The position numbers were made by a program, and so were the translations under genes. Below, piece after piece: positions 38,233-53,035 of a DNA stretch of 64,000 nucleotides. Source of the stretch: Kiritimatiellia bacterium (GTDB taxonomy: Bacteria; Verrucomicrobiota; Kiritimatiellia; RFP12; UBA1067); NCBI GenBank assembly GCA_045598585.1, contig JAZLMG010000027.1:4380-68379 (forward strand), read 5' to 3'. Numbering within the stretch: position 1 is the stretch's first letter; each line of letters opens with the position of its first letter. Under the pieces are notes generated by a model that was not told where the DNA came from, did no database searches, and saw nothing but the letters and a program-made list of their open reading frames with translations.

Positions 38233-38312
38233 CTGTGCTGAAGGCGGCAGCTTGGTCAGGGGTTTCTAACATCATTCCTCCCCGAAGCTGGGCTGCTCGC
38301 CTTCAGCACAGC
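38233..38312 (+). promoter_or_regulatory. long imperfect stem-loop in the ~130-nt 5' UTR of the giant gene
   Basis: CTGTGCTGAAGGCG (38233-) pairs with CGCCTTCAGCACAG (-38312), GCAGC with GCTGC, and GGGG with CCCC. TTTCTAACA occurs in the apical loop and again at 38328-38336 just before the SD. Confidence 0.5.
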
Positions 38313-38348
38313 TGCCGTATCGTACGATTTCTAACAAAGGAAAATAAG

Positions 38349-41300: not shown

Positions 41301-44300
41301 ATTTCCGGCAATGGTCAGATTGCCGCCGATGAGTCGCTCTTTACGGATGGCTGCTATATCAAGGCGCTTGTCGAGGCGCAGAGCGCTCTCACGATTGCGG
41401 ATACCATTACGTTCGATCAGACAATGAAGTCTGGTTTTGTTGGAGCGCTTTACAAGACAGCAACAACGATTGAGCTTCGTGCGCAGAATAAGGAAGTTAT
41501 CTCCATTAACCTTGCCGGCGGTAAGAACACGGCGGAGACTTCCGAAGCCGCGAACTTGGTGACGGACGCCAATACCTATTATGGTCTCGCGCCGGTTCCG
41601 GGTGATAAGTGGAATAATATTTCCGGTCGTTGGCAGACGGGAAACAAGACCGTTACGCTTAATTCGGCTACCGCGTATGATGGCATGACGACGGCTCAGC
41701 GCGATACGATGAGCTTGAGTGCGACGGCGCAAAATACTTGGAATGCTGATAGTATTGCAAATCCGTTCCTTCGCGGCTATCTTGACGATAGCGGCGGCGT
41801 TGAAGTCTCGGTTACGGGTATCCCTTATTCGAAATACGATGTCATTGTTTATGTAACATCGGATGATGCACGTTATAGACTTGCGCCGATTACCGTGAAC
41901 AAAGTCAAGTATACCTATATGAACGGGGAAGCCGTCGTTGATACCGGTACGACGGATTGGGGCGTTGGACTTCAGGCGACGCCGGCTTTCGGCAAGAATG
42001 CGATGATTATTCGCAACCAGAGCCTGCAGACCTTGTCAATCAAGGCCGAGCGTCATACGAATGCGGGTCGTGGTACGCTTTGCGCGATACAGGTTATCAA
42101 CATGGGCGGCGAGGTGCTGACCCAGCGCACCTATGCTTCGACGATTACGACAGAAATGACCGCAGCGAATCTCTCGGAGCTTCAGTGCACCGGCTCGGGT
42201 TCGACGATTGTTGGCGGTGAGCTCACTCAGGTTACGCTGACGCTTGAAGGCGAAGCGACTGATCCCGAATTCGTTTTGACGATGGACGATCCGACGATCA
42301 AGACGGAATTCATCAAGATTATCGGCTCGCGTCCGATTAAGATTGCCTCTTCCGCGGCGATGGAAGGTGTTGTTTTGGATCTTTCCGAAACGTCGGGCAA
42401 TGTGACGCTTGCTCAGTCGGCTAAGAAGGTGACGGTTGGCGAACACGCGCGCCTTGTTCTTGCCGATGGTGTCTCGGTTGAGGCGCTCACGAATAACGGT
42501 GGTACGATTCGCTTCGAATCTGACCTTTCGTCCGGTACGACGCCGAACAATGGCGCGGGTACTTACGAATATAAGAATGCGAAGATTACCGGCTTCGTCA
42601 ATGGCAGCGCGAAAATCCATGTACTTGATGGTGATACGCTTAACGTGACGGCGCGTACGGCTCCTTCGCTCGAAATTGAGAATGGCGCGACGGTGACGAT
42701 CGGTGAAGCCGTTGGCAGCTTGTGGTATGGCGATGGTACGACCTTTGTTCAGAAGGGTGGCACGGTCTCATTGCCAATTAACGGTACGGGAACCTCCGGC
42801 ACAGGTAATGGCCTCTTGCTCGGCTATCAGAATGGCGGCATCACTCAGATGTCGGTTTCGGGCGGCTCGTTCACGATTGCGAATTCGTCTCTCAACTTCT
42901 ATCTCTGCTCGTCGATGACGGTTTCGGGTACCGGACACGTCAAAGCGAAGGGTGTTTATAAGAGCGGTAATGCCGCGACAGTCACGGTTTCCGATAACGG
43001 TATCTTCGAAATCGGTTCGCTCGGTTGGTCTGATATTTCTCTTAATATGAACGGCGGCACGTTTAAGGCGTTCGAGACGGCGACGATGTCAGCGGCGATG
43101 ACGATCCGTGATGCGACGACGATAGATGTCCCCGATGGCGTCACGCTTACGATTACGGGCGCGATTTCGGGTAGCTCGAACATCACGAAGACGGGTGCGG
43201 GCACGCTCATCATCACCGACTCGCTAGAAGGTTATACGGGTACGATTACGGCAACGGCCGGCCGCATCTCGGCGTGTGACTACTCGAAGGTCGCGACTTC
43301 CGATGTGGGTAAAATTCTCGTCGTGGAGTCGATTCCCGAATATGCCTCGGGCCACTTCACGGTTCCGACGGAGCTTGCGACGGTTGACTTCGATGTTCTT
43401 CGTCCGACAGGTACGATTGTGACCAAGGCGGAAGTTCTCGCCGATAAGACGGCGAAGATCTCGGGCGTTGCAACGAGCTTCGACGTGACCTATACCAATA
43501 CGATTAACTTTGCGTACAAGGCGAATTCTTCATGGTCCTCGGCTACGGATGCCAATGCAAAATCGTACAATAACACGCTCAATGACAAGTCCACGGGTCT
43601 TGAAATTCATAATCAGCCGCATATTGAGAATATTGCGTCAACGTTTTATGATGCAACCGATCAATTGTCGTTTGCGATTGTCGGTACTATGCCGGCGGGT
43701 CAGGATACGATTTTTGCGCACTTTGGACATTCTCAATCCGGTAAGTCCGGCCTTATGATCATTACCGGATCTAAGGAAGATGAGGTCGTCGTAGCGTTCA
43801 ACCATGGAAATCAAGTTACGCCGATTGCGAAGATGGTAGTTCCGAATTCGGCGACCAAACGTCATGCGTATGTCATCACCAAGGATGACAATCGCGATGC
43901 CGATACGACGACCTTTACGATTTATCTCGATGGAATAAAGTGGAAGACCCATGTTGAAACACCGAGATTTATGATTAGCGGCAATATTCAAATCGGTGGT
44001 GATGTTTGGGGCCTAATTCGAAATACCCCAAGTATCACAAATCCTGCGAATAACTATACGATTGCTACTTCTCAAAATGATGGTATCGTAAACTGTGTTC
44101 GTGGATATAACCGAATTATCTCCGCAGCGGAAATTGCTCAGTATTCCGATGAGAGCGAATTTCCTTATGTTTCGCCGAATGGAACATATACTCGTAATCC
44201 TACCGAGAATGGTAGCTGGGTTAGCGAGGGTGCGTGGACGAGCGGAGATGAGACGGTTGAGAAGCCCTCGGTTAAGGGTAATGTCGTCGTGACCGGTACG

Positions 44301-47300
44301 CACGCTGAAAACGCCGAAGCGACCGAGAAGACGATTACGGTTAATCTCACCGATGAAGTTCAGTACGAAAAGCTCACGCTCTCGGGTGATCCGATGCGCT
44401 TCGTCAACGGCGGCAACGATGCAAAGCCCGTTAAGTCGGTCTGCACGGTTGTCGGCACGACGGTTACGCTTTCGCAGAATGCGATCGACCTCAAGGCCGG
44501 CCCGACGATCATTCTCGATACGGGCAAGCTCGTCTTCGACTTCTCTTCGCTTACCGAGCAGATCGTCGCTGCCAACCCGATCGATCAGCAGGTTACAGGC
44601 GATATCGAAGAAGATGAGAACATCGGCACTGAAAGCGCGAAGATTGTCGTCGTTGGCCCGGAGAATCCCGGCCGTCTCGACATTCGTTTGAGCTACGTCA
44701 ACAACTGCTATCATGTCGTTGCGGCATTGAAGCCGGTCTATCTCAACAGCGATAATACGTTGCAGCTTGCTGACGGAACGACGGTCTCTTCGCTCTACGA
44801 GAACGAGAAGGTTTATGTCTCCTCGGTTGGCTTTGATCAAACGACCCGCTGGCGCGTCAACCTGAATAATAACACGCTCAGCGGACATACGGTCGTCATC
44901 GACTATCCGAATGGTGGTTCGAATCCGGGTATCAGCGTCCAAAGCGATATCTTGGATAATCTCAACATTGAGATTGCGGACGGTTCGATTATGTACATGC
45001 AGTCGGGCTATAAGGCGACCAATGCGACGATTACCGGCAAGGGCACCTTTAAGCTCACACAGCCGTTGACGGTTGACGGCGCCTTGATGATCTCCGCGGC
45101 AACTGTTACCGTCGAAGAATCGGGTAAGTTCAAGTTGAATACCAACGGCTCGGTTACCGTTCCTTCTGAACTTGGCGAGGGTCTTATTGAAAGCAATGTT
45201 TCGGGCATGCAGGTCAAGAAGGTGACCAACGAAGGCGAGACGACGACCTACACTTACTCGCTCTTCACGCCGGCGGCTTCTATCACGATTGACGGTGAGA
45301 CGACGTATTATTATCCGACTCTTGCCGATGCGATTTCCGATGCCTCGGCGGATGGTCTTACGGTGACGCTTGAGGGTGATGTGACGCTGGACGCCGCAGT
45401 AACGGTTCCGGTTGGGGTTACCCTCGATATCGGTTCGCATACGATCAGCGGTAGTCAGGTTAATGTCTATGGCGCTATCGCCGGTAATGGTACGATCGGC
45501 ACTTTGGTGATGGTTCGTAATTCGACGATCATTATGCCCGAGGAGGGCGTGCTCAAGGTGAGCTACATCGGTAAGTTCGATATAAAGCTCAATATCGCCA
45601 ATGCTGCGACCTCGCCGCTTACCTATCTCGAAGTTGCGAACATCTATGTTGATGGCACGAAGGCGTATGCGCCGTCATTCATCTCCTTCGTCGATGATGG
45701 AGTCGAATCCGTTGGCGTGGTCGGTCTTGACCAGCGCGAATCGGATGAGGTCTATCTCCTCCAGGCGGCAATCGCCGTCGCCGGCGTTTCGGTTTCGGTA
45801 GGGGGAGTTGACTATACCTATGGTTACATGACTGTCAATGAGGCAGTAGAGGCGGCAGTTGAGCAGGGTGGCTCCTATGCCAATGTCGAGGTCTACGACG
45901 AGGACGCGGAACTTCCTGAGGGCTTCATGGTCGTCTCGGGTCATTTGGCTCCGATTGTCGCCAAGATCGGCACGACTCCGTATCCAACGCTCCCCGGCGC
46001 GATTGCTGCGGCAGAAGAGACCGCTTCGGCGCAGACGCCTGTGACGGTGACGCTCGCGCGCAACGTGACGCTTCAGGATGCTTTGAATATTCCCGCCAAT
46101 GTGACGGTTGATGTGAACGGCTTCACGTTCACGGGCTCGGTTCAGGGTGCGGGTAAGATCAAGTTCGCCGGCTTCGCGCCGATTAAGGATGCGACGACGC
46201 TCAAGACCTCGCTTCAGGATTCCGAACATTGGACGGGTACGCTTTTGATTACTCAGCCGACTTCGGGCCAGATTGGTGCGAGTGATAACACTGTCGATAC
46301 GGCGGCCAATGGCTATCGTACGCTTCTTAATAACTACGGCAACATCAATTCGAAGATTGAGTTCGTTGATTGCACGGGTGATGGTGATATCAACTATATC
46401 GGACTTTCGCACAATGGCGATTCTGATCCTGTTGTTATCAAGCCCGAAATTGTCATTACCGGTAATGTGAAACTAAATAACGGATATTCGCATAGCAACA
46501 GCTATCCGAATTACTACACCGTTATTCGTAAGCTTTCCGGTACGGGTGCAATCAGTGCAACGCACTCCTCGCAGCTCTATTACATCGTTGACGGCAGCGA
46601 GTTCGCGGGCTCCATCTCGACGACAACGAAGAAGTTCATCTTCGGTGAGCGTGAGTCGACGGATGGTGTTCCGGCAGATGGCATTATCGCCGTTAAAATC
46701 GGTAAGTCCGTAACGATCGCGTCTGATAAGACTTGGTCTGCGACATCGATCGTTGTTAACGGTACGCTTACGAAGTCGAATGGTGCGACTTTGACCGGTA
46801 GCAATAATAACAATGGTAAGGTTGCCGGCTCCGGCGAAATCATCGTCGTCGGTTCGACCACGGCCGCCGGTATCAGCGGACATGGTATTCGCGGGCTTAC
46901 CGAAACGAATTGGACGGGTACGCTTACCATTAAGGATTGGAATGGTGCTGCTAATGCCGGTTCGGCAGATTTCGGCAATCTCGGCAATGCCAATTCGACT
47001 GTTCGCTTCGATGGCTATAACGGTTATCTCTATACGGGAACCTATAACCAGATTAAGGCGTATGACATTGCCGCGGGCGGCTTGACCTTGATTGGTCAGT
47101 ACTCGAACGGTAATCCGATCTTCCAGGGCAACTTGACCGGATCGGGTCCGATTACGGTGAATATGACGGGTGGACGTTTGATTAAGTTCGTCGGCGATCA
47201 CTCCGCATATACGGGAACGATTACTGTTGCGAATACTGCGTGCGTTGCGTTGGTTGATTCGGCTGACGCGCCTGTCCAGTACGAAGCCGGCAAGGTCATC

Positions 47301-47840
47301 TACGGTTCCGGATCCTCTCAGAAGATTCCTGAGATTCCTGAAGATGCGACTGTGACGATTGCACCCGGATCAAACGCGACGGTGACGTTCCCCGAAGAAG
47401 CGACTGCCGAGGAGAAGGCGGCAATTGCTGACCAGATCGTCGTCAAGTACGGCGAGACTGTTCTCAATCCTGCCGAATGCACGAAGTATGTCGAAGTCAC
47501 GATCAATCAGGAATCCGGTAAGGTCGAGCTGACGACGACGGAGGCCGCCAAGCCGGCTGCGACGGAGATCGCGATGTCGACGCCGACGGAAGGCGAAGGT
47601 GAGGAAGCGACTGACAAGGTTCAGTTCACGATCACCAACCCGATCCCGGGTCTCTTCTACGAAATCGTCTCCGGCGATAGCTTCGATGAGCACGGTGCTC
47701 TCGTTGTTGACGAAGACGCTGAGAAGGGTACCTCTCAAGCGACGACTTCGGCCGAAGCGAAGACGGTCTCGATCCCGATGACCTTCACCGGCGATAAGAA
47801 GGTGAAGTACTACAAGGTCAGCGTCAAGGCAACGAAGTAA
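38349..47840 (+). CDS. giant secreted surface protein (3,163 aa): LamG/ConA-like lectin domains + PATR-like/beta-helix repeats + small conserved C-terminal tail
   Basis: ATG 38349 follows AAGGAAAATAAG, with signal peptide MMKKIMKTMLSFAALMLCGGAWA|AA. LamG-like segments lie at about 38420-39140, 40525-41150 (LHLDASSL…WNDLSGKN…LIFN) and 43594-44150. PATR-like motifs are TKTGAGTLIITDSLEGYTGTITATAGRI (~43180-43270) and LTGSGPITVNMTGGRLIKFVGDHSAYTGTITVAN (~47130-47235). An internal duplication covers ~39315-39435 and ~40240-40360 (DGTVTVEMHGVD / DGVLTVEMHVQD). I recognise no beta-barrel, LPXTG or PEP-CTERM. Confidence 0.85.
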   Translation: MMKKIMKTMLSFAALMLCGGAWAAAIYKPIAVWDGNFADLTKGGVTLANVGESANPIVTSNGESYIKIADDATKGVFLNWDDLYNVTLANGGFSGREVTVIVAYSDMPTPGTNAKDAIFTLTSQATTTSNASSDWLGVMANTSGQTSAMVGSNSTWTHTSENPKGVFDFANNEQGIRYLAFSYKSSSTEVLPTGCQLFQRADDGTWTKVYGSWGLKTSTADIRGCSIGGPRNVTYAGALQGLKIHKIAVFNEILTDANLAGYRFPSDVNVLTHNKALTSDYVATGWYVSSVDELTAYNYTGVMAGGYVTDGTPAYGYFPTKHSDGTVTVEMHGVDNEAKGVLVEMKVEDGEVKIKGIKAAYWSAKNQIGNRLWQAANNSQITTGNGTFASGATGNGYGILSLTATPSYHVLNASYKNFNQAGYGSTYTYKFNLRATPSYADGTKVLVKRVGIACEGANDDLPAKVRINGIASTSRIGPEYESTFGSASSTIVYYNFDNGVELTVGTDADEFVYLNADDTVSTSIRHRLVEKIARSYSNLSVITIYNNGTEVTNYSPICDVVAERIAINPDNDATFTGTLSHSTWSVIGKVAEGDTINDVALKYGITAQLGGSSINRGTPLDAVDCYSQVHTDGVLTVEMHVQDGDNKKNVLVGFKVEGGLLMAKWLKGSYKGTTVNDRQTTYAEGGTISVISGFTSYDNYEVTKLVVTKADLLNTSATKPSVIATSNNALRLHLDASSLANFTLSNGEVTQWNDLSGKNYNATPASAKVGNADVTRNGYIEVVNGVPAFQMGPTGSGVDLAFNRFTGIKTVFWVMDIKQEQAAFFLGDVGYQQYDFHRGANGVYASQNKPFKNATCVRCDGVQVNPASDVAPTGLHVYSAQLATAANANRLSQDRSENGCNGGRAISELLIFNTELTNDQVAEVNKYLMKKWTGYKERTATISADTNWSEIEWSGDEDTDNIVIAFEDNAKLTFDSSVQCNSMTISGNGQIAADESLFTDGCYIKALVEAQSALTIADTITFDQTMKSGFVGALYKTATTIELRAQNKEVISINLAGGKNTAETSEAANLVTDANTYYGLAPVPGDKWNNISGRWQTGNKTVTLNSATAYDGMTTAQRDTMSLSATAQNTWNADSIANPFLRGYLDDSGGVEVSVTGIPYSKYDVIVYVTSDDARYRLAPITVNKVKYTYMNGEAVVDTGTTDWGVGLQATPAFGKNAMIIRNQSLQTLSIKAERHTNAGRGTLCAIQVINMGGEVLTQRTYASTITTEMTAANLSELQCTGSGSTIVGGELTQVTLTLEGEATDPEFVLTMDDPTIKTEFIKIIGSRPIKIASSAAMEGVVLDLSETSGNVTLAQSAKKVTVGEHARLVLADGVSVEALTNNGGTIRFESDLSSGTTPNNGAGTYEYKNAKITGFVNGSAKIHVLDGDTLNVTARTAPSLEIENGATVTIGEAVGSLWYGDGTTFVQKGGTVSLPINGTGTSGTGNGLLLGYQNGGITQMSVSGGSFTIANSSLNFYLCSSMTVSGTGHVKAKGVYKSGNAATVTVSDNGIFEIGSLGWSDISLNMNGGTFKAFETATMSAAMTIRDATTIDVPDGVTLTITGAISGSSNITKTGAGTLIITDSLEGYTGTITATAGRISACDYSKVATSDVGKILVVESIPEYASGHFTVPTELATVDFDVLRPTGTIVTKAEVLADKTAKISGVATSFDVTYTNTINFAYKANSSWSSATDANAKSYNNTLNDKSTGLEIHNQPHIENIASTFYDATDQLSFAIVGTMPAGQDTIFAHFGHSQSGKSGLMIITGSKEDEVVVAFNHGNQVTPIAKMVVPNSATKRHAYVITKDDNRDADTTTFTIYLDGIKWKTHVETPRFMISGNIQIGGDVWGLIRNTPSITNPANNYTIATSQNDGIVNCVRGYNRIISAAEIAQYSDESEFPYVSPNGTYTRNPTENGSWVSEGAWTSGDETVEKPSVKGNVVVTGTHAENAEATEKTITVNLTDEVQYEKLTLSGDPMRFVNGGNDAKPVKSVCTVVGTTVTLSQNAIDLKAGPTIILDTGKLVFDFSSLTEQIVAANPIDQQVTGDIEEDENIGTESAKIVVVGPENPGRLDIRLSYVNNCYHVVAALKPVYLNSDNTLQLADGTTVSSLYENEKVYVSSVGFDQTTRWRVNLNNNTLSGHTVVIDYPNGGSNPGISVQSDILDNLNIEIADGSIMYMQSGYKATNATITGKGTFKLTQPLTVDGALMISAATVTVEESGKFKLNTNGSVTVPSELGEGLIESNVSGMQVKKVTNEGETTTYTYSLFTPAASITIDGETTYYYPTLADAISDASADGLTVTLEGDVTLDAAVTVPVGVTLDIGSHTISGSQVNVYGAIAGNGTIGTLVMVRNSTIIMPEEGVLKVSYIGKFDIKLNIANAATSPLTYLEVANIYVDGTKAYAPSFISFVDDGVESVGVVGLDQRESDEVYLLQAAIAVAGVSVSVGGVDYTYGYMTVNEAVEAAVEQGGSYANVEVYDEDAELPEGFMVVSGHLAPIVAKIGTTPYPTLPGAIAAAEETASAQTPVTVTLARNVTLQDALNIPANVTVDVNGFTFTGSVQGAGKIKFAGFAPIKDATTLKTSLQDSEHWTGTLLITQPTSGQIGASDNTVDTAANGYRTLLNNYGNINSKIEFVDCTGDGDINYIGLSHNGDSDPVVIKPEIVITGNVKLNNGYSHSNSYPNYYTVIRKLSGTGAISATHSSQLYYIVDGSEFAGSISTTTKKFIFGERESTDGVPADGIIAVKIGKSVTIASDKTWSATSIVVNGTLTKSNGATLTGSNNNNGKVAGSGEIIVVGSTTAAGISGHGIRGLTETNWTGTLTIKDWNGAANAGSADFGNLGNANSTVRFDGYNGYLYTGTYNQIKAYDIAAGGLTLIGQYSNGNPIFQGNLTGSGPITVNMTGGRLIKFVGDHSAYTGTITVANTACVALVDSADAPVQYEAGKVIYGSGSSQKIPEIPEDATVTIAPGSNATVTFPEEATAEEKAAIADQIVVKYGETVLNPAECTKYVEVTINQESGKVELTTTEAAKPAATEIAMSTPTEGEGEEATDKVQFTITNPIPGLFYEIVSGDSFDEHGALVVDEDAEKGTSQATTSAEAKTVSIPMTFTGDKKVKYYKVSVKATK

Positions 47841-47883
47841 GCGAACTATTCTATCAGATATATTAGTTCGATTTACCAACAGC

Positions 47884-47915
47884 AAACGGCTTCGAAAGGA
47901 GCCGTTTGTTATTTT
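47884..47915 (+). terminator. rho-independent terminator of the giant gene
   Basis: AAACGGCT-tcgaaagg-AGCCGTTT followed by GTTATTTT. Confidence 0.8.
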
Positions 47916-47922
47916 AAGGGGC

Positions 47923-47952
47923 TTGATTTGAGAGAGAGGATTTTGATATAAT
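47923..47952 (+). promoter_or_regulatory. cassette promoter 1 (GGGGCTTGAT…TGATATAAT)
   Basis: TTGATT, 18-nt spacer, TGATATAAT. ATG 47961 is 8 nt after the -10. Confidence 0.6.
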
Positions 47953-47960
47953 AGCGTAGC

Positions 47961-48893
47961 ATGAATCCTTTAAGAAATAGCAATATTAACTACTGCCAAG
48001 GGTGGTTCTTCGTTACTATCCAAGTGGCGATGAACAAATCGGTTTTTGGTGTTGTTTCCGATAAGAGATTAATTCTTAATGAGTTAGGAAATGCGGTTAA
48101 AGAGAATCTAAGCCGACTTGGAAATATATTCCCGGAATTATATGTTGATACCTTTGTAATTATGCCGAACCATCTTCACGCTATTTTCAAGATAGATAGT
48201 AAAAGCGAGTCGCGGCATCTGTCGTATTTTATAGGACGATTCAAGTCTTTCACAGCGAATTTGTATCATAGAATGGTAAGAGAAGGTGTTTGTATTGATA
48301 TTGGGGCTTCGCTTTGGCAGACTAATTATTACGATAATTTGATAACCGAACATAAGGAGCTGGAAGCCATCAGAGAATATATAAGGAGAAATCCCGAGAG
48401 ATGGGAGGATGACCGTTTTGGCCCGGTTACGACATATTCAAAGGGAAACCTGAAGCTGTTAAATGAGTCTTTGGTGGCATTTGTCGCGTCAGATACTAAA
48501 GATAATTGGCAAGAGGATGTGCCGCATTTAAGAGAGGTGAGAGAGGTTTCAGGACGGAGCCCTATTTCAAAAGAAGCTCCCTTAATATCCACTTTCTCTA
48601 GTTTTGAGGAAAAAGGAGCTTTGTTAAAAAGAATAAATGATAGGTTGCCTTTTATATGGGTAGATCCGGCAGGAATTAAGCCGAATCTTCGTCCTGATAT
48701 TGAATCGGCGATTCTTGAAGGATGGGGATTGGTGATTTCTCCGGTTGAAAGCGGGACGGGACTCAATAAACAACGGGCGATCTGGTGTAATAGATGGATT
48801 ATTAAGGTAGCTAAACGAATTTATGTTGGAACGATAAAGAAGGGTGGTACTCTTGATACATTGTTGACGCACGGAGGCGTCAACCTACGATAA
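47961..48893 (+). CDS. HUH Y1 transposase (IS200-like/REP-associated RAYT, COG1943-type) fused to a DprA-like (SLOG-fold) C-terminal domain
   Basis: 310 aa. The N-terminal ~160 aa carry the HUH motif (MPNHLHAIF), LWQTNYYDNLI and the catalytic-Tyr motif (EYIRRNPERW). The C-terminal ~150 aa resemble DprA at motif level: GNLKLLNESLVAFVAS (compare GNxxLL…vaIVGSR) and GLVISPVESGTGLNKQRAIWCNRWIIKVAKRIYVGTIKKGGTLDT (compare liSE.p.g…F..RNRiI.gls…vvEa..kSGsl.T). Confidence 0.6.
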   Translation: MNPLRNSNINYCQGWFFVTIQVAMNKSVFGVVSDKRLILNELGNAVKENLSRLGNIFPELYVDTFVIMPNHLHAIFKIDSKSESRHLSYFIGRFKSFTANLYHRMVREGVCIDIGASLWQTNYYDNLITEHKELEAIREYIRRNPERWEDDRFGPVTTYSKGNLKLLNESLVAFVASDTKDNWQEDVPHLREVREVSGRSPISKEAPLISTFSSFEEKGALLKRINDRLPFIWVDPAGIKPNLRPDIESAILEGWGLVISPVESGTGLNKQRAIWCNRWIIKVAKRIYVGTIKKGGTLDTLLTHGGVNLR

Positions 48894-48940
48894 CATATCG
48901 TGGTGCTCGGCCTCTGTGCCGAATTATGTAATCTTCCGCG

Positions 48941-48995
48941 CGAGGGTGTGAATAGAGGCGAGGAGTGATCTTCGCCTCTTTCTTCGTCTTTCCCG
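48941..48995 (+). repeat. 55-nt hairpin element, copy A (full length)
   Basis: CGAGGGTGTGAATAGAGGCGAGGAGTGATCTTCGCCTCTTTCTTCGTCTTTCCCG, inserted after TCCGCG. The flanks match the empty site at 52227-52263. Confidence 0.85.
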
Positions 48996-49015
48996 GCACT
49001 TTGGCGGAATGGGGC

Positions 49016-49045
49016 TTGATTTTCCCAAGGGGAATATGATATAAT
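49016..49045 (+). promoter_or_regulatory. cassette promoter 2
   Basis: GGGGCTTGATT, 18-nt spacer, TGATATAAT. Confidence 0.6.
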
Positions 49046-49147
49046 ATAAGCGATCTCCCGAAAGGTGGGATCATCTGGATGCGGAGGAAAGTCTTCGCGT
49101 TGGTGACGGGAAGTAATTCTCGTCGCCTTCTCATTTTAGCGGCAGGC

Positions 49148-49837
49148 ATGGCAGAGAAAATATTGAGTATATTTGTGGATGAATCGGGGCGCTTTCAGTA
49201 TCCCGATTCCGATTCTCGTTTCTACATTTTGGGTCTTGTATTACACGATCAATCTGACGCAATAGATAAATACGTTGCAGATCTTGAGCGGTCTGAAGAT
49301 GAGGTTGGACTTGAAGGGCATTGTTTTCATGCCGGACCTCTTATCCGCAAGGAGAAGGGGTATGAAATCATGAGTCGTAAATGGCGTGGAAGGATATTCT
49401 CTCGCATGATGGCATTTGCTCAGAAGGTTCCTTTTCGCTATCATTGTCTGAGCGTTGATAAGAAACTTATTGATGATGTTGGCCAGATTGTTGAACGCTT
49501 AGATCGACAACTGGTTGAGTTCATTTCATTGCATCGAATCGACTTGTTCAATATCGAGACTATCAAGATATACTACGATTGTGGTCAGTCTCCGGTTACA
49601 AATCTTCTTCATAAGACATTCGTTGAAGAACTCGGGAAACGGGTGGAGTTTGCGCAAGGAGTACAACCGTCAAGCTATCGGCTTTTCCAGTTGGCAGATC
49701 TCGTATGTACAGTTCATCTAATCGAGCGGCGTCTGGAAGAAGGGGATAGGATGACGATGTCAGAGGTTCGGTTCTTTGGCGGTCCTCGCGACTTCAAACG
49801 AAATGTTTTGAAAAAGCTCAAGGCCAAGGAAGTTTAA
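49148..49837 (+). CDS. DUF3800-family protein
   Basis: N-terminal ILSIFVDESG and C-terminal YRLFQLADLVC are DUF3800 hallmarks. An alternative upstream ATG at 49079 is conserved in the truncated copy. Confidence 0.7.
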   Translation: MAEKILSIFVDESGRFQYPDSDSRFYILGLVLHDQSDAIDKYVADLERSEDEVGLEGHCFHAGPLIRKEKGYEIMSRKWRGRIFSRMMAFAQKVPFRYHCLSVDKKLIDDVGQIVERLDRQLVEFISLHRIDLFNIETIKIYYDCGQSPVTNLLHKTFVEELGKRVEFAQGVQPSSYRLFQLADLVCTVHLIERRLEEGDRMTMSEVRFFGGPRDFKRNVLKKLKAKEV

Positions 49838-49889
49838 TCGAAGTAATCCTGTAAATCCTGTAAATCCTGTCTAAAACAGGACAAGCTAA

Positions 49890-49931
49890 AGAGGCGAGGC
49901 GTGAGTCTCGCCTCTTTCTTCGTCTCCCGCG
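49890..49931 (+). repeat. hairpin element, copy B (hairpin + 3' part; different 5' flank)
   Basis: AGAGGCGAG-gcgtgagt-CTCGCCTCT TTCTTCGTCTCCCGCG, preceded by the TCCTGT-ctaaa-ACAGGA hairpin (49865-49881) and AAATCCTGT tandem 9-mers. Confidence 0.8.
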
Positions 49932-49951
49932 GCGCATTGGCGGGAGGGGGC

Positions 49952-49981
49952 TTGACGAGGTTATCATAATTATGATATAAT
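49952..49981 (+). promoter_or_regulatory. cassette promoter 3
   Basis: GGGGCTTGACG, 18-nt spacer, TGATATAAT. The SD AAGGAGA precedes ATG 50006. Confidence 0.6.
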
Positions 49982-50005
49982 TCTTATCGGTTTAAGGAGA
50001 AGATT

Positions 50006-50302
50006 ATGCCGCCTATGATTAAAGACTCGGATATTCGTCCGATTTCCGACTTGCGCAATAAGTTCGCCGAAATTGCGGATTATGTGCAAGATGGTAATGC
50101 CGTTATCTTTACGCGTAATGGCTATGGTTGCATGGTGACGATCAGTTACGATTCGTTCAAGCGTCTAGGAGATCCTGTGCTTGCTGAATTGCGAGAGGCG
50201 GATCGAAAGTGCGAGCAGGACCCTCGTCATTATACGAAAGAAGAGTCTTTAGCCATTTTGAAGGAGCGCGCTAATGCTCGGCGAAACCGCGTACAGGCTT
50301 GA
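50006..50302 (+). CDS. Phd/YefM-family type II antitoxin
   Basis: 98 aa. IRPISDLRNKFAEIADYV…VIFTRNGYGCMVTISYDSFKRL is typical of Phd/YefM. Confidence 0.8.
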   Translation: MPPMIKDSDIRPISDLRNKFAEIADYVQDGNAVIFTRNGYGCMVTISYDSFKRLGDPVLAELREADRKCEQDPRHYTKEESLAILKERANARRNRVQA

Positions 50303-50621
50303 TATTCGTCCGACATTTATCGACGAGCTTGATCGCGCGGTAGAGTATATCGAGCGCAAATTCAAAAATCCTATTGCGGCAGACAATCTTATTAACGATG
50401 TCTACGCGGCGATAGACGAACGACTTTTTGCGCCGGAATCATACGAACCTTGCTATCGTCCACCGGATGTAACCAAGCCGTATTATCGTATTGATGTGCG
50501 AAACTATTCGATATATTACGTGGTGATTGGTTCGGTAATGGAAGTCCGGTGGTTCAGATATTCAAAGAGCGTTCAGCCTCTTTCCGGATATCCGATCTAT
50601 GAGTCCGGAAGTGTCTGGTAA
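50274..50621 (+). CDS. RelE/ParE-family type II toxin
   Basis: 115 aa overlapping the antitoxin, with a ParE-like core (YRLDIRPTFIDELDRAVEYI…YYRIDVRNYSIYYVVIGSVMEVRWFRY). An atypical C-terminal tail runs into the relic at 50605-50667. Confidence 0.72.
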   Translation: MLGETAYRLDIRPTFIDELDRAVEYIERKFKNPIAADNLINDVYAAIDERLFAPESYEPCYRPPDVTKPYYRIDVRNYSIYYVVIGSVMEVRWFRYSKSVQPLSGYPIYESGSVW

Positions 50622-50667
50622 CGCGAAGGTTAAGTACTTCCGCGTCCGCGTCAAGGCGACCAAGTAA
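50605..50667 (+). pseudogene. relic of a giant-protein 3' end (…PEVSGNAKVKYFRVRVKATK*)
   Basis: Aligns with the giant C-terminus TFTGDKKVKYYKVSVKATK* at both protein and DNA level (GTCAAGGCGACCAAGTAA vs GTCAAGGCAACGAAGTAA). It is out of frame with the parE end. Confidence 0.65.
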
Positions 50668-50709
50668 TCTTGGAAATCCTGTCAATCCTGTCTAAAACAG
50701 GCAAGTTAA

Positions 50710-50752
50710 AGAGGCGAGGAGTGATCTTCGCCTCTTTCTTCGTCTTCCCGCG
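50710..50752 (+). repeat. hairpin element, copy C (hairpin + 3' part)
   Basis: AGAGGCGAGGAGTGATCTTCGCCTCT TTCTTCGTCTTCCCGCG, preceded by the CCTGT-ctaaa-ACAGG hairpin (50687-50701). Confidence 0.8.
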
Positions 50753-50772
50753 GCGCATTGGCGGGAGGGGGC

Positions 50773-50802
50773 TTGATTTTCCCAAGGGTAATATGATATA
50801 AT
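50773..50802 (+). promoter_or_regulatory. cassette promoter 4 (near-duplicate of promoter 2)
   Basis: GGGGCTTGATTTTCCCAAGGGTAATATGATATAAT vs GGGGCTTGATTTTCCCAAGGGGAATATGATATAAT at 49011-49045. Confidence 0.6.
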
Positions 50803-50859
50803 ATAGGCGATCTTTCGAATGAAGGATCATCTGGATGCGGGGAAAGTGCTCCGCCTTAA

Positions 50860-51069
50860 GTGACGGGTTCGCCTGTCACTTTCGCATTTAATAGAATGAC
50901 GAGAAGGTCGCTTAGTGTATTTGCAGATTTAATCTGTACAATTCGCTTTATAGAGGAAGAACTTAACGTTGGCGATGGGATGACATCTTCCGAAGATAAG
51001 TTCTTTGGCGGTCCGAAGGCATTCCGTCATAATGTATTGCGTTATGTTAAGTCCAAGGAAATTCGTTAA
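50860..51069 (+). pseudogene. truncated DUF3800 paralog (promoter, leader and last ~50 codons only)
   Basis: LSVFADLICTIRFIEEELNVGDGMTSSEDKFFGGPKAFRHNVLRYVKSKE aligns with YRLFQLADLVCTVHLIERRLEEGDRMTMSEVRFFGGPRDFKRNVLKKLKAKE of the intact copy. The N-terminal DESG part is absent. Confidence 0.75.
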
Positions 51070-51080
51070 GGGCTTTGTTT

Positions 51081-51167
51081 TCAGCTAAGGCGGACTCGAT
51101 CCCGAAGACCTTCGGCGAAGGTAAGAAGGTCAAGTTCTTCAAGGTCAGCGTCAAGGCGACCCGATGA
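51081..51167 (+). pseudogene. relic of a giant-protein 3' end (SAKADSIPKTFGEGKKVKFFKVSVKATR*)
   Basis: Aligns with SAEAKTVSIPMTFTGDKKVKYYKVSVKATK* (47748-47840), with strong DNA identity (TCGATCCCGAaGACCTTC…AAGAAGGT…AAGGTCAGCGTCAAGGC). Confidence 0.75.
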
Positions 51168-51238
51168 TGCGAGCATCCCCGTGGCAGGCGAAGTAATCCG
51201 CGGCAGAAATGCCCAAGATGTAACAAGAACAACAACAG

Positions 51239-51268
51239 ACGGCTTCGCAAGGAGCCGTTTGTTATTTT
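51239..51268 (+). terminator. second copy of the giant-gene terminator
   Basis: ACGGCTtcgcaaggAGCCGTTTGTTATTTT vs ACGGCTtcgaaaggAGCCGTTTGTTATTTT at 47886-47915. Confidence 0.75.
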
Positions 51269-51338
51269 CCATGTTTGTGCTTGGCACATCTGTGGAGAAT
51301 GAAAATCGTATCTTCCGCTATACTTTGGCGTAAGGGGC

Positions 51339-51368
51339 TTGACAAAGGTGTATCCTAAATGATACAAT
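51339..51368 (+). promoter_or_regulatory. cassette promoter 5
   Basis: GGGGCTTGACA, 18-nt spacer, TGATACAAT. ATG 51375 is 6 nt after the -10, so the transcript is probably leaderless. Confidence 0.6.
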
Positions 51369-51374
51369 ATTGAC

Positions 51375-51662
51375 ATGACAATTCGAGAGACAGAGCTATA
51401 TAAGAAGTGGTTTGCAAAGTTGAAAGATACGGTAGCTAAGGCGCGTATCTTGGTGCGACTTCGTAGAATGGCGCTTGGTAATTTCGGTGAGTATAAGGAT
51501 TTGGGTGATAATGTTTCGGAGTTGAAGTTTCATTTCGGTCCTGGATATCGGATTTACTACACAGAGAGAGATGGCGAGATTGTAATATTATTGGCGGGAG
51601 GCGACAAGTCTTCGCAGACTAAAGATATTGCTAAGGCAAAGGAGCTTGCCGCAAACTTGTAA
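51375..51662 (+). CDS. addiction-module killer protein (HigB-like, RelE/ParE superfamily)
   Basis: 95 aa. GNFGEYKDLGDNVSELKFHFGPGYRIYYTERDGEIVILLAGGDKSSQTKDIAKAK is the canonical killer-protein signature. Confidence 0.85.
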   Translation: MTIRETELYKKWFAKLKDTVAKARILVRLRRMALGNFGEYKDLGDNVSELKFHFGPGYRIYYTERDGEIVILLAGGDKSSQTKDIAKAKELAANL

Positions 51663-51672
51663 GGAGGGTGTT

Positions 51673-51957
51673 ATGAAAACTAAGACTACAATTTGGAAGA
51701 TTGAGAATCACCTTAAGACGAAAGAAGAGCGTGAGGCTTATCTTAACGCGGCGTTTGAGGATGGTGATGCGTCTGTTATTGCTGCGGCGCTCGGTGATAT
51801 TGCTCGAGTTGAAGGTATGAGTAAGGTTGCGAAGAAGTCCGGGCTTGGACGGGAAAGCCTTTACAAAGCTTTGTCGGCTGAAGGCAATCCTGCTCTTGGG
51901 ACGATTATTAAAGTTCTTAAAGCGTTTGATTTTAATCTTCGAGCGGCATGCTTTTAA
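51673..51957 (+). CDS. addiction-module antidote protein (HigA-like HTH)
   Basis: ATG 51673 follows AAGGAGGG. YLNAAFEDGD…GMSKVAKKSGLGRESLYKALSAEGNPALGTIIKVLKA. Confidence 0.85.
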   Translation: MKTKTTIWKIENHLKTKEEREAYLNAAFEDGDASVIAAALGDIARVEGMSKVAKKSGLGRESLYKALSAEGNPALGTIIKVLKAFDFNLRAACF

Positions 51958-51977
51958 CATAGCAAAGCTTCTCCGCG

Positions 51978-52033
51978 CGAGGGGGTAAATTGAGGCGAGG
52001 TGTGAGTCTCTCCTCTTTCTTCGTCTTTCCGCG
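51978..52033 (+). repeat. hairpin element, copy D (full length, degenerate stem)
   Basis: CGAGGGGGTAAATTGAGGCGAGGTGTGAGTCTCTCCTCTTTCTTCGTCTTTCCGCG, flanked by TCCGCG on the left. Confidence 0.8.
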
Positions 52034-52073
52034 GCGATTTTGGTTTGTTTATGCAGTTATTGTTTCGGAATAA

Positions 52074-52113
52074 TTCAGTATTGTTTCAGTACGGATTCAG
52101 TAACGATTCAGTA
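52074..52113. repeat. 4 x 11-bp tandem repeat (TTCAGTA core)
   Basis: TTCAGTA at 52074, 52085, 52096 and 52107, with an exact 11-bp period. Confidence 0.75.
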
Positions 52114-52258
52114 CTGTTGCGGTTTGTTTTTAAAAAGAGGGGACAGTCCCCAATTCGTGGACATTCGAAAGGCGATGCAAGCATTCGTGTTCCCATTCGT
52201 GCCTCGCGCCGGTAGGCGCCAACATCTAATCTTCCGCGGCACTTTGGCGGAATGGGGC

Positions 52259-52288
52259 TTGACAGGATGATATCATATATGATACAAT
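52259..52288 (+). promoter_or_regulatory. cassette promoter 6
   Basis: GGGGCTTGACA, 18-nt spacer, TGATACAAT. ATG 52296 is 7 nt after the -10. Confidence 0.6.
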
Positions 52289-52295
52289 ACATGCC

Positions 52296-52634
52296 ATGAA
52301 TTACGTGACTAAGAAGTATGAACGAGAGAATGGGGCAATTCCCTTCGACGAATGGATCTCGTCGCTTTCGCCGGTATTTCGTGCTCGAGTCTATGCTTAT
52401 CTCACGAGAGTTGAGCTTGGCAATTGGGGTAATGTCAAGTCAATCGAGGGCGAGGATTCGAAAGATCTATTTGAGTTGCGTATGTTCTTTGGCCCCGGAT
52501 ATCGCGCTTATTTCGGCAAAGATGGTGACAAATTGATATTGCTACTTTGCGGAGGCGACAAGAAGACGCAAAAGCGTGACATCAAAGAGGCGAAGATGTT
52601 GTGGAATGAATATCGAAAGAGGAAAGGAGAATGA
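52296..52634 (+). CDS. addiction-module killer protein (HigB-like), paralog 2
   Basis: 112 aa. GNWGNVKSIEGEDSKDLFELRMFFGPGYRAYFGKDGDKLILLLCGGDKKTQKRDIKEAK. Confidence 0.85.
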   Translation: MNYVTKKYERENGAIPFDEWISSLSPVFRARVYAYLTRVELGNWGNVKSIEGEDSKDLFELRMFFGPGYRAYFGKDGDKLILLLCGGDKKTQKRDIKEAKMLWNEYRKRKGE

Positions 52635-52635
52635 T

Positions 52636-52953
52636 ATGGCTTTGACGGTTGATTATCGTGAAGGAGTGTTAAAAGACATCCGGGAAAATCCTGAGGTGGC
52701 ACGCGAGTATTATCGCGAAGCGGTTAAGGCAACGATTAACGGAGAGACGGATGTCGCAAATTCGATGTTTCGCGACCTTGTAAATGCAGGTATCGGCTTT
52801 CAGCGACTTGCGGCCGAAACGGGAATCAGTGCGCCGAATCTTCATCGCGCACTATCTCCACGCGGCAATCCTACTATGAAGACATTTAGTAAGATAGCAG
52901 CTGCGGTCAGTTTGTATTTGGGTTTCCCCACCCCGATGGGAATATTCGGTTAA
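52636..52953 (+). CDS. addiction-module antidote protein (HTH), paralog 2
   Basis: ATG 52636 lies 2 nt after the toxin stop. FQRLAAETGISAPNLHRALSPRGNPTMKTFSKIAAA. Confidence 0.8.
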   Translation: MALTVDYREGVLKDIRENPEVAREYYREAVKATINGETDVANSMFRDLVNAGIGFQRLAAETGISAPNLHRALSPRGNPTMKTFSKIAAAVSLYLGFPTPMGIFG

Positions 52954-52980
52954 ACCAAGAACAAACATCCACCATCCGCG

Positions 52981-53035
52981 CGAGGGGGTAAATAGAGGCG
53001 AGGCGTGAGTCTCGCCTCTTTCTTCGTCTCCCGCG
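52981..53035 (+). repeat. 55-nt hairpin element, copy F (full length, best consensus)
   Basis: CGAGGGGGTAAATAGAGGCGAGGCGTGAGTCTCGCCTCTTTCTTCGTCTCCCGCG, flanked by TCCGCG on the left. It has a 9-bp stem and an 8-nt loop. Confidence 0.85.

Follow-up and report, generated by a model that had tools for sequence, protein, structure and literature searches.

A Y1/HUH endonuclease domain fused to a derived DprA-fold domain in Kiritimatiellia: a probable new defence nuclease rather than a mobile gene

The familiar HUH/Y1 enzymes are transposases, RAYTs and initiators of the replication or relaxase kind. DprA loads RecA during natural transformation and, as has emerged lately, also serves as the sensor in abortive infection in the form of ShosA and PsyrA. 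In a 64,000-nucleotide stretch of a Kiritimatiellia contig (here called the window), one gene joins these two kinds of protein, and members of its family carry the public annotation 'transposase' or 'RayT'. This raises the question of whether the gene serves its own mobility or has been put to another use. We report here that its product is a Y1/HUH endonuclease domain fused to a derived DprA-fold domain. Rather than being mobile, the gene probably encodes a defence nuclease not described before, and the 'transposase' and 'RayT' labels probably mislead for proteins of this type. Feature positions are collected in Table 1.

Table 1. Features of the fusion gene, its product and its immediate flanks (coordinates in the window)
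Feature	Coordinates	Strand	Basis
HUH/DprA-like fusion ORF, 310 aa	47961..48893	+	homologues mostly full length; AF2 model
Y1/HUH domain, residues 1-145	47961..48395	+	PF01797, Foldseek, invariant catalytic residues
HUH motif NHLHAI (H71, H73), residues 70-75	48168..48185	+	
Catalytic Tyr helix EYIRRNP (Y140, N144), residues 139-145	48375..48395	+	
Connector WEDDRFGPVT, residues 148-157	48402..48431	+	near-invariant in 109-sequence alignment
Truncated DprA-fold domain, residues ~158-305	48432..48875	+	domain-only AF2 model, Foldseek, hhalign
GN..LL-type segment GNLKLLNESLVAFVAS, residues 162-177			
Variable linker, residues 178-204	48492..48572	+	alignments, length statistics
SP/RN-type segment SPVESGTGLNKQRAIWCNRW, residues 260-279			
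Segment KKGGTLDTLL, residues 293-302			
Promoter-like motif GGGGCTTGA-N17-TGATATAAT, extended -10	47918..47952	+	exact-match scan, sigma-70 scan
Repeat unit with terminator-like hairpin AGAGGCGAGGAGTGATCTTCGCCTCT + TTCTTCGTCT (48954-48989)	48935..48989	+	repeat family D1/D2, terminator scan

Two domains in a single reading frame

The ORF starts with ATG and continues as a single unbroken frame, and all of the motif strings quoted in the earlier note on this DNA are present in its translation. A search with the 310-aa protein found 235 homologues, most of them spanning 96-99% of its length. Because more than 100 full-length homologues of the fusion exist at 40-90% identity, an assembly artefact joining two ORFs is ruled out, and the gene is genuine. 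An AF2 model of the full protein reached a pLDDT of 90 and a pTM of 0.75. We found no paper describing an HUH plus DprA-like architecture in the literature searched, in agreement with the novelty that had been claimed for the fusion.

The N-terminal half had been proposed to be a Y1/HUH transposase-like domain, and Pfam, the best NCBIfam match and Foldseek all agree. Pfam PF01797 (Y1_Tnp) scores 35.7 bits over residues 41-143 (cut-off 23) and is matched by 109/109 family members. The HUH metal-binding motif, the Tyr of the C-terminal helix and the polar third ligand at Tyr+4 are all present, and H71, H73, Y140 and N144 are unchanged throughout an alignment of 109 homologues. The invariance of these catalytic residues at 40-90% identity indicates purifying selection on nuclease activity.

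Of the known Y1 proteins, RAYT/TnpA-REP resembles the N-terminal half most closely. The best NCBIfam match of this half is REP_Tyr_transpos (NF047646), at 54.5 bits against a cut-off of 80 (51.6 and 55.4 bits for the proteins P0039 and P0216), and the IS200 model NF033573 scores 22.9 bits against a cut-off of 55. A Foldseek search with the full model matched 2xm3, 2a6m and 4er8 at E values of about 5e-7 to 1e-6; these are the TnpA proteins of IS608 and ISDra2 and, for 4er8, E. coli TnpA-REP. The lowest rmsd was that to 4er8, 3.2 Å over 149 columns. Through the connector, in which W148, D151, R152, F153, G154 and T157 are invariant among the 109 sequences, the Tyr-bearing helix leads directly into the first strand of the DprA-like domain.

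A truncated and derived DprA fold

The C-terminal half has the Rossmann-type fold of DprA. A domain-only AF2 model (pLDDT 92.7, pTM 0.88) was compared with the PDB by Foldseek, and ranks 1-14 were exclusively DprA or ShosA (TMq 0.47-0.61, probability 0.96-1.0), with later ranks falling to a probability of 0.06 or less. The top match was ShosA (8zva, E 1.2e-4), and 3uqz, which like 4ljk and 3maj is a DprA structure, gave a TMq of 0.61. The alignments to DprA extended over 137-175 columns, and in the search with the full model DprA was the first fold family besides the transposases. About 150 residues superpose on DprA and nothing else rises above Foldseek noise, which bears out the earlier assignment of this half as DprA-like; the accompanying motif-by-motif alignment to DprA was essentially right. 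The conserved blocks are GN..LL..VAFVAS, ISTF(T/S)SxEE, P(G/A)GI, SPVxSGTG(V/L)NKQRAIWCN and GGTL(E/D)TLL. The top 50 Foldseek matches of the domain-only model contained no CARF or ThsA entry, and the LOG-like 1rcu stood at rank 44 with a probability of 0.06. CARF and ThsA-SLOG identities for the domain, having no match above noise, were rejected.

At the level of sequence, the link to DprA is transitive only and passes through a family of stand-alone proteins of ~150-170 aa (e.g. P0243 and P0226), here called mini-DprA. These are the closest sequence relatives of the C-terminal domain and are, to our knowledge, themselves uncharacterised. By hhalign, the C-terminal profile matches the mini-DprA family with 99.9% probability (E 2e-31, 150 columns). 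Mini-DprA members in turn reach the gathering score of PF02481 (29.6 bits), and their profile finds pneumococcal DprA 3uqz in the PDB at E 7.7e-8. Direct comparisons gave less. The window protein has no match to PF02481 (212 positions) at E<=10, and 8 of the 109 family members match it weakly (best E 0.03). A PDB sequence search with the protein and with the full-length and C-terminal profiles returned no significant DprA (3uqz at E 2.1). The C-terminal profile was also not significantly similar by hhalign to a set of 14 enterobacterial DprA sequences (probability 0.7%), a comparison limited by the shallowness of that set (>=68% identity).

As judged from these alignments, the C-terminal domain is a truncated and derived DprA fold, not a true DprA. 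It covers positions ~30-170 of the 212 in PF02481, its relatives match ~30-172, and the part of the DprA fold beyond position ~172 (the last ~40 positions) is absent. The site of Rossmann helix alpha-1 is taken by a hypervariable linker of 0-80 residues in homologues, often made of low-complexity repeats; stand-alone mini-DprA proteins have no linker at this site. The 'GxD' pocket, which had been described as degenerate, is indeed so, with DprA 'SGlAkGiD' replaced by 'ISTFSSFEE' in the window protein.

Three arginines bind ssDNA in DprA-fold proteins, namely R52, R143 and R170 of HpDprA, corresponding to R139, R234 and R261 of ShosA (PMC12961424). When mapped by sequence alignment (from the family to mini-DprA to 4ljk) rather than by superposition, the equivalent positions in the 109 sequences appear to be E/D/Q at 178, an invariant Cys at 276 and T/S at 300. 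Since all three arginines are lost, ssDNA binding by the C-terminal domain is not to be assumed, and the earlier statement that both halves act on ssDNA may not hold for this one. The invariant Ser, Thr, Gly, Lys and Arg residues fall in loop motifs between predicted strands and helices, a placement deduced from the motifs and not from model geometry.

Mini-DprA proteins are also found fused to radical SAM and HAD domains. The PADLOC model for PsyrA matches mini-DprA (E 1e-14) and, more weakly, the window protein (E 1e-3), and mini-DprA also matches ShosA. One mini-DprA gene overlaps a GmrSD gene and another overlaps a gene for an Old-family nuclease. These matches and overlaps suggest that the DprA-like module is a recurrent accessory of defence. 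A trio of Y1_Tnp, Old and mini-DprA genes was considered as Rosetta-stone evidence for cooperation of the two domains and downgraded, as its Y1 protein is a canonical IS200 TnpA (57.2 bits). This TnpA has no specific similarity to the N-terminal half of the fusion and, beside the Old and mini-DprA pair, may only be mobilising cargo.

Genomic settings of the fusion gene

The gene occurs in Kiritimatiellia and related PVC MAGs, with 24 loci in 23 species-level genomes, one of which carries two. A comparison of 26 loci identified neither shared flanking hairpins nor IS-like ends, consistent with the earlier observation that the window gene has no such ends of its own. In phage and plasmid collections we found no full-length fusion, only distant matches to the N-terminal domain. 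At about one copy per genome, without flanking hairpins and without phage or plasmid copies, the HUH/DprA-like protein is very probably not the transposase of an element of its own. We accordingly give very little credence to the idea that the gene belongs to an IS200-like element, so far unrecognised, whose active transposase carries an extra domain. The intact Y1_Tnp active site, the varying position of the gene between genomes and the 'transposase'/'RayT' labels of the source annotation would fit such an element. However, subterminal hairpins are not conserved either, divergent members keep synteny in several clades, and the gene is tightly embedded in operons: at most loci a co-directional upstream gene lies 5-65 nt away, and many have only 5-15 nt on each side.

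In the window, the gene is the first of a series of promoter, gene and hairpin units, so that the earlier description of it as the head of a hairpin/cassette array holds. The promoter-like motif ends 9 nt upstream of the ATG and also precedes every later unit of this islet. The whole window contains six exact matches where 0.01 would be expected, and all six fall between 47918 and 52288; a sigma-70 scan gave 10/12 matches plus the TG extension. The repeat unit with its hairpin is present in five copies (0.49 expected), common to the fusion gene and the four units that follow. The neighbours in the islet are DUF3800, Phd/ParE and two HigB/HigA pairs. In tblastn searches over the 64-kb window with Cmr, Card1 and Cas1, only the fusion gene itself was matched.

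This arrangement invites an explanation in terms of RAYT-type housekeeping, in which the Y1 domain would recognise the local hairpin units (AGAGGCGAGG..CTCGCCTCT, conserved also in their flanks) and, by cutting them, build or reshuffle the islet. Units may also be inserted behind the terminators of giant surface-protein genes, and the task of the DprA-like domain would be to keep hold of the ssDNA intermediate or to bring in RecA. In favour of this are the closeness of the N-terminal half to RAYT/TnpA-REP, the single copy, and the position of the gene at the head of five hairpin-bounded units. The islet moreover contains orphan copies of the 3' ends of giant genes as well as of the terminator of the giant gene, and in four loci (the window, L002, L024 and L026) the fusion gene follows a giant gene with the same C-terminal motif. 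However, the other 25 loci lack shared or inverted hairpin flanks, the hairpins 5' and 3' of the window gene are unrelated to each other, the hairpin unit is confined to the islet within the 64 kb, and the NCBIfam RAYT score stays under its cut-off. A metagenome scan for the unit gave 0 matches with a strict pattern; a loose pattern gave 90 scattered matches, one site per contig in unrelated environments, which are partly palindromic (and thus counted on both strands) and probably generic terminators, so that the scan does not bear on REP-like dispersal. On balance, we consider the housekeeping explanation unlikely.

In relatives, the gene is a conserved neighbour of type III-B (Cmr) systems in several lineages. 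It directly follows the last RAMP gene of a complete Cmr set in L003, L008, L009, L012, L025 and L036. Immediately downstream in five of these (L003, L008, L009, L025 and L036) is Card1 (CARF-PD-D/ExK) or a Csx1-like CARF-HEPN gene; in L012, Card1 lies two genes further downstream. Cas1, Cas2 and/or arrays are found near the Cmr-linked loci, with a CRISPR array detected in L003, L008, L012 and L025. The truncated contig of L011 has the same downstream gene set, and CARF-HEPN genes adjoin the fusion gene in L022 and L027. The ORFs L009:11014 and L022:11212, considered as second Y1 ORFs, were rejected as such because both encode CARF-HEPN proteins. L012:14756, located between card1 and cas1, is a second HUH plus mini-DprA fusion with 22% identity. 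The Cmr-linked members form at least three branches with 52-59% identity between branches, all from one bacterial class and hence not fully independent, and the L003 branch is sister to the clade of the window. Other relatives, L034/L035 and probably L015, are part of a type I R-M island that also contains HD, KAP NTPase and RhuM genes. At about half of the loci the neighbours are not defence genes but genes for sialidase-like, ABC-F, SecDF, dynamin-like GTPase and giant surface proteins. No HUH/DprA-like protein is listed in the type III accessory-gene censuses that we searched.

The Cmr setting could be explained by a second-messenger-gated effector, whose DprA/SLOG-type domain would bind a cyclic oligoadenylate made by Cas10, or a related nucleotide, and activate the HUH nuclease. 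The gene does hold the position of an ancillary effector beside Card1 or Csx1, the loss of the ssDNA-binding arginines and the invariant residues in loops usual for Rossmann ligands would fit, and in ThsA the SLOG domain has been proven to sense nucleotides (PMC11204291). This explanation is nevertheless quite improbable in our view, as Foldseek points to the DprA clade only, many members including that of the window have no adjacent cyclase, and the loci already hold one or two CARF effectors.

Alternatively, the protein could help CRISPR adaptation: the DprA-like domain would capture ssDNA, whether incoming or replicative, from which the HUH domain would trim prespacers for Cas1-Cas2 of the type III-B locus. 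In L036, L012 and L011 the fusion gene lies just upstream of cas1-cas2, and the handling of incoming ssDNA is part of DprA biology (PMC12961424). Yet the gene is always on the cmr/card1 side, occurs in Cmr loci in which cas1 was not found within 10 kb of it (L003 and L009), and is also present without CRISPR, in the window and in the R-M island. We regard this role as highly unlikely, and we know of no precedent for an HUH/DprA-like adaptation helper.

Proposed function and comparison with known systems

The explanation that we tentatively prefer, at a probability a little short of even, is that the family is a domesticated, single-copy RAYT-like HUH nuclease combined with a truncated DprA-fold module, self-contained in defence islands. 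The DprA-like domain would be a recognition or regulatory module that binds ssDNA of foreign origin or some other ligand, be it a nucleic acid or a nucleotide. Its ligand surface would be family-specific and formed, at the crest of the Rossmann fold, by the invariant NKQR, WCN, S/T-rich and GG loops. Once bound, the ligand would bring the Tyr helix into position or set it free, and the HUH site would then nick ssDNA and form a 5'-phosphotyrosine link. In relatives, the module is built into type III-B Cmr operons beside Card1 or Csx1 effectors, or into type I R-M islands; the copy in the window is a solitary unit that has a promoter and a terminator of its own and opens the DUF3800 and toxin-antitoxin islet. 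The data presented here show the architecture and fold of the protein, the conservation of its catalytic residues, where the gene occurs and which genes surround it; a part in defence, the ligand and an allosteric coupling are what we infer from them. A bolder claim, possible but doubtful at present, is that the family is an unrecognised CRISPR-associated or defence effector, an HUH nuclease domesticated from a RAYT-like transposase, controlled by a derived DprA-fold sensor and repeatedly recruited to Cmr operons, R-M islands and toxin-antitoxin islands.

If true, this would add a new example of a transposase domesticated for defence, within the type III-B operons of several lineages, and a new type of CRISPR ancillary protein. 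Neither an HUH nuclease nor a DprA-fold domain would have been assigned to CRISPR-Cas immunity before, and the module could provide an ssDNA-directed arm of type III-B immunity. HUH domains form sequence-specific covalent links with ssDNA and are in use as protein-DNA tags; a ligand- or ssDNA-gated version would be useful as a tool.

By comparison to known HUH proteins, the fusion shares with RAYT/TnpA-REP the Y1/HUH fold, the Tyr with a polar residue at +4, the single copy and the lack of IS ends. It differs in scoring below the NF047646 cut-off, in having no inverted REP flanks and in usually lying within operons, and no described RAYT has its DprA-like C-terminal domain of ~165 residues. 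With IS200/IS605 TnpA (IS608, ISDra2) it has the same catalytic domain, passing the PF01797 gathering score, but it lacks subterminal hairpins, multi-copy spread and a tnpB partner.

Similarities to DprA/Smf comprise the Rossmann-type fold, the strand order and the motifs GN..LL, (V/I)A.V.S, SP/SE...RN/CN and GG/SG-(T/S)L. In contrast to DprA/Smf, the fusion has STF(T/S)SxEE in place of 'GxD' and no SAM or winged-helix domains. Mini-DprA proteins have the same truncation point as the C-terminal domain and likewise occur in defence-island contexts, but they keep helix alpha-1 and, mostly, the 'RN' arginine, pass PF02481 and have no Y1 domain.

As representatives of a DprA-fold protein employed in anti-phage defence, ShosA and PsyrA (the antitoxin/sensor components of ShosTA and PsyrTA) resemble the fusion in use; they act with separate toxin partners and are not fused to an HUH domain. 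ShosA is the DprA-like ssDNA sensor of an abortive-infection system, and in both proteins the DprA fold is full-length, with the arginine triad retained; both also dimerise and bind RecA (PMC12961424). Although no ThsA-SLOG or CARF structure matches the C-terminal domain above noise, the combination of a sensor with an effector enzyme follows the same logic in the fusion as in ThsA (SIR2-SLOG, Thoeris) and the type III CARF effectors, and in Cmr loci the fusion gene holds the same operon slot as the latter.

A Y1 transposase-like domain joined to a DprA fold

The earlier note had proposed that this gene joins a RAYT/IS200-like HUH Y1 domain to a DprA-like domain, and all of the motif strings it cited were found in the protein where it had placed them. 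The fusion is genuine and an assembly artifact is ruled out: a search of 5.8 billion proteins returned 235 homologues, mostly 40-90% identical and 305-440 aa long, most of which span 96-99% of the query. Database names for them are "transposase" or "RayT". Pfam places PF01797 (Y1_Tnp) on residues 41-143 with 35.7 bits (cut-off 23). The RAYT equivalog is the top NCBIfam model (54.5 bits, under its cut-off of 80), and the IS200 model scores only 22.9 bits. An AlphaFold model of the full-length protein (pLDDT 90, pTM 0.75) resembles the structures of IS608, ISDra2, and IS200 TnpA and of TnpA-REP (E 5e-7 to 8e-5), with DprA as the next fold family below the transposases (3uqz, E 2.6e-3, then 4ljl, 5mll, and 4ljk). 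Because the HUH residues H71 and H73, Y140, and N144 (Tyr+4) do not vary in 109 sequences, the Y1/HUH active site must be under purifying selection. Alignments A1 and A2 of the family contain two hypervariable insertion hot spots (table), which low-complexity tandem repeats (for example, PPQWVGDYEK, AGEARYK, and PTAVG) fill in homologues.

When residues 146-310 were modeled separately (pLDDT 92.7, pTM 0.88), PDB matches ranked 1-14 were all of the DprA family, and those beyond were noise with a probability of at most 0.06. The best match was ShosA (8zva, E 1.2e-4); S. pneumoniae DprA (TMq 0.61, 20% identity), H. pylori DprA, and R. palustris DprA were also among these 14. Above noise there was no CARF, ThsA-SLOG, or LOG domain; that the protein is a second-messenger-gated effector, by analogy with the SIR2-SLOG protein ThsA, seems to us improbable.

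As judged from profiles, the sequence link of this domain to DprA is transitive, via stand-alone relatives of about 150-170 aa (mini-DprA proteins), which the domain profile picks up among 1.84 billion representatives at E 1e-9 to 1e-15. In hhalign, the domain and mini-DprA match with 99.9% probability (E 2e-31, 150 columns). The mini-DprA proteins P0243 and P0226 exceed the PF02481 gathering score of 29.6 with 43.4 and 39.9 bits, and the mini-DprA profile matches pneumococcal (E 7.7e-8), enterobacterial (E 6.8e-5, 133 columns), and H. pylori DprA (E 6e-4). Direct comparison of the Y1-DprA C-terminal profile with the DprA profile gave no significance; PF02481 is weakly present in 8 of 109 members (best E 0.03), as their second commonest Pfam family. 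The by-eye alignment to DprA in the earlier note proved correct, with GN..LL..VAFVAS corresponding to GN..LL..IVGSR, SPV..NKQRAIWCNR to SE..F..RNR, and GGTLDT to SGSL.T.

Gene neighborhoods and distribution

The gene neighborhoods are the chief new result on the Y1-DprA family. Neighboring ORFs at loci in other genomes or metagenome contigs were clustered, alongside annotation by Pfam and PADLOC. A complete Cmr set (Csx1-like Cas_NE0113, Cas10 (mCpol), Cmr3, RAMP, Cmr5, RAMP, RAMP) directly precedes the Y1-DprA gene in L003, L036, L008, L009, L012, and L025. A Card1-type CARF-PD-D/ExK or Csx1-like CARF-HEPN gene directly follows it in L003, L008, L009, L025, and L036; in L012, Card1 is two genes further downstream. 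CARF-HEPN genes also adjoin Y1-DprA in L022 and L027. Cas1, Cas2, and/or a CRISPR array are close by at the Cmr-linked loci, with arrays detected in L003, L008, L012, L025, and L011 (the downstream portion of the gene set on a truncated contig) and cas1-cas2 in L036; that the protein is a spacer-acquisition helper we regard as very unlikely. On the family tree, Cmr-linked members are spread over at least three branches with 52-59% mutual identity and unlinked members in between, and the sister group of the window's clade is the L003 branch.

Cas10 is short (393-517 aa) in L003, L036, L008, and L009, where the Pfam listing shows Cmr2_N, mCpol, and palm2 domains but no match to an HD domain; in L012 and L025 it measures 823-868 aa. 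L012 also encodes a second HUH and mini-DprA fusion, 22% identical, between card1 and cas1.

A separate clade, L034/L035 and probably also L015, lies within a type I restriction-modification island whose genes include HD, KAP-NTPase, and RhuM. The L034/L035 island (196-15937), common to two independent metagenome assemblies, encodes three paralogues of HsdM together with YhcG, HsdS, a protein with an HD domain, and a KAP NTPase, followed by Y1-DprA, an unknown protein of 257 aa, RhuM, and HsdR. In the window, the gene has DUF3800, Phd/ParE, and two HigB/HigA pairs for neighbors, and no cas genes were found. The remaining loci have mixed neighbors (sialidase-like, ABC-F, SecDF, dynamin-like GTPase, or giant surface-protein genes).

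A scan with one genome per species yielded 24 loci, about one copy per genome. They all belong to MAGs of Kiritimatiellia, "Verrucomicrobia", or Lentisphaerae, the majority of gut and rumen origin. The 26 Y1-DprA loci compared have neither flanking hairpins nor IS ends in common, and in most a co-directional gene lies 5-65 nt upstream; phage and plasmid collections held no full-length copies. Copy number, the absence of shared ends, tight gene spacing, and absence from phages and plasmids argue against an active IS, which we consider highly implausible, and the same distribution and flank data argue against a classical RAYT/REP arrangement.

Architecture, fold, conservation, and neighborhoods are established computationally. 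We tentatively favor, at somewhat short of even chances, a domesticated RAYT-like HUH ssDNA endonuclease that would be controlled or targeted by its derived DprA-fold domain, in defense islands and, in part of the family, with its gene ancillary to type III-B CRISPR-Cas. We infer a defense role, ssDNA or a nucleotide as the ligand, and coupling to the Tyr helix. Searches of full texts, including the 2025 CRISPR-Cas classification and censuses of CRISPR-linked genes, turned up no HUH/IS200-like or DprA/SLOG accessory gene and no HUH and DprA-like fusion. Both domains are known; we rate the conserved architecture and context as new.

The islet behind the giant gene

In the window, the 5.1 kb between the giant gene and the next ordinary gene (47918-53029) form six consecutive units, carrying the Y1-DprA gene, DUF3800, Phd/ParE, a decayed unit, HigB/HigA, and a second HigB/HigA. 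This islet resembles a cassette array, yet each unit comes with a promoter and a terminator of its own. The decayed copy looks like a pseudogenized unit (50824-50857 matches 49068-49101 at 79% identity, and 51068-51083 matches 49314-49329 at 94%). The second orphan 3' end is accompanied by a 92% copy of the giant-gene terminator hairpin (47877-47915), and the orphan ends and this copy suggest that the 3' ends of giant genes were repeatedly sites of insertion or recombination. Such ends, like the layout of the window, speak for a RAYT-like enzyme that would act on local hairpin units and build the islet behind giant-gene terminators, but the other 25 Y1-DprA loci lend this no support and we think it unlikely. 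The giant ORFs directly upstream of Y1-DprA, from three branches, share a similar C-terminal motif before the stop codon (YYKVSVKATK, FFKVGVEMR, FYKVTVSEQ), which may be a sorting signal and may mark a favored insertion site.

Features of the Y1-DprA gene, the islet, and upstream giant ORFs (window coordinates unless a locus is named)
Feature	Position	Strand	Remarks
Y1-DprA ORF	47961-48893	+	single intact frame, 310 aa
Strong promoter-like motif, GGGGCTTGA-N17-TGATATAAT	47918-47952		upstream of Y1-DprA gene
Terminator-like hairpin	48954-48979		downstream of Y1-DprA gene
Hot spot 1	residues 79-86 (48195-48218)		just after HUH motif; 4-61 residues in family
Hot spot 2	residues 178-204 (48492-48572)		replaces first helix of DprA fold; 0-80 residues in family
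Promoter-like motif, GGGGCTTGA-N17-TGATAYAAT	47918, 49011, 49947, 50768, 51334, 52254		start of each islet unit
Hairpin unit, AGAGGCGAGG..CTCGCCTCT-TTCTTCGTCT	48954, 49890, 50710, 51991, 52994		end of 5 of 6 islet units
Orphan 3' ends of giant-gene paralogue (KVKYFRVRVKATK-stop, KVKFFKVSVKATR-stop)	50625-50667, 51083-51268		inside islet
Decayed copy of DUF3800 unit start	50824-51069		without intact ORF
Giant ORF directly 5' of Y1-DprA gene	38235-47840		3201 aa
Giant ORF directly 5' of Y1-DprA gene	L002:2700-9953		2417 aa
Giant ORF directly 5' of Y1-DprA gene	L024:5171-9862		1563 aa
Giant ORF directly 5' of Y1-DprA gene	L026		1243 aa

The mini-DprA module and the comparison with DprA

Outside the fusion, mini-DprA proteins are recognized by the PADLOC models for PsyrA (E 1e-14) and ShosA. 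In L028 (6277-8489), a GmrSD type IV restriction gene overlaps at its end, by 4 nt, with a gene for mini-DprA (162 aa, PF02481); other members of this defense island are an MmeI-type methyltransferase, DUF6615, a HEC-01A-like ATPase, and DUF4276. In L030-L032, another mini-DprA gene overlaps an Old-family ATPase-TOPRIM nuclease gene, and the two may be an undescribed two-gene system. IS200 TnpA (149 aa), the Old-family nuclease (525 aa), and mini-DprA (156 aa) form a recurrent, identically spaced trio in at least two distinct genomic backgrounds (L030:5859-8471, L031:1747-4359, L032), which may be IS200-borne defense cargo. This Y1 gene is a canonical IS200 TnpA without specific similarity to the N-terminal half of Y1-DprA, so we do not treat it as strong evidence for cooperation between the two domains. 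A profile search (P0261, P0253, P0225, P0155, P0177) further yielded mini-DprA domains fused to radical SAM or HAD hydrolase (partners by Pfam), the radical SAM fusion with a weak viperin-like PADLOC match. It also yielded a 518-aa protein with an additional N-terminal domain preceding the Y1 and DprA-like part and a 1196-aa protein in which profile positions 122-145 are matched seventeen times.

Within the Y1-DprA family, S177, S210, S214, E217, P236, G238, P261, N269, K270, R272, W275, C276, N277, G295, and G296 are invariant, as is the connector W148-x-x-D-R-F-G-x-x-T157, which joins the Tyr helix with the first strand of the DprA-like domain.

Rather than a DprA, the C-terminal domain is a derived version of the DprA fold. 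The ssDNA-contacting residues R52, R143, and R170 of HpDprA equal R139, R234, and R261 of ShosA (PMC12961424). Mapped through alignments of the C-terminal domain to mini-DprA and of mini-DprA to DprA, they correspond to Y1-DprA positions 178 (E/D/Q), 276 (invariant Cys), and 300 (T/S), and none of the 109 sequences has a basic residue at any of these. Unlike DprA, the domain ends at about position 172 of 212 of PF02481, a linker of 0-80 residues stands in for the first Rossmann helix in homologues, and the DprA pocket SGlAkGiD becomes ISTF(T/S)SxEE.
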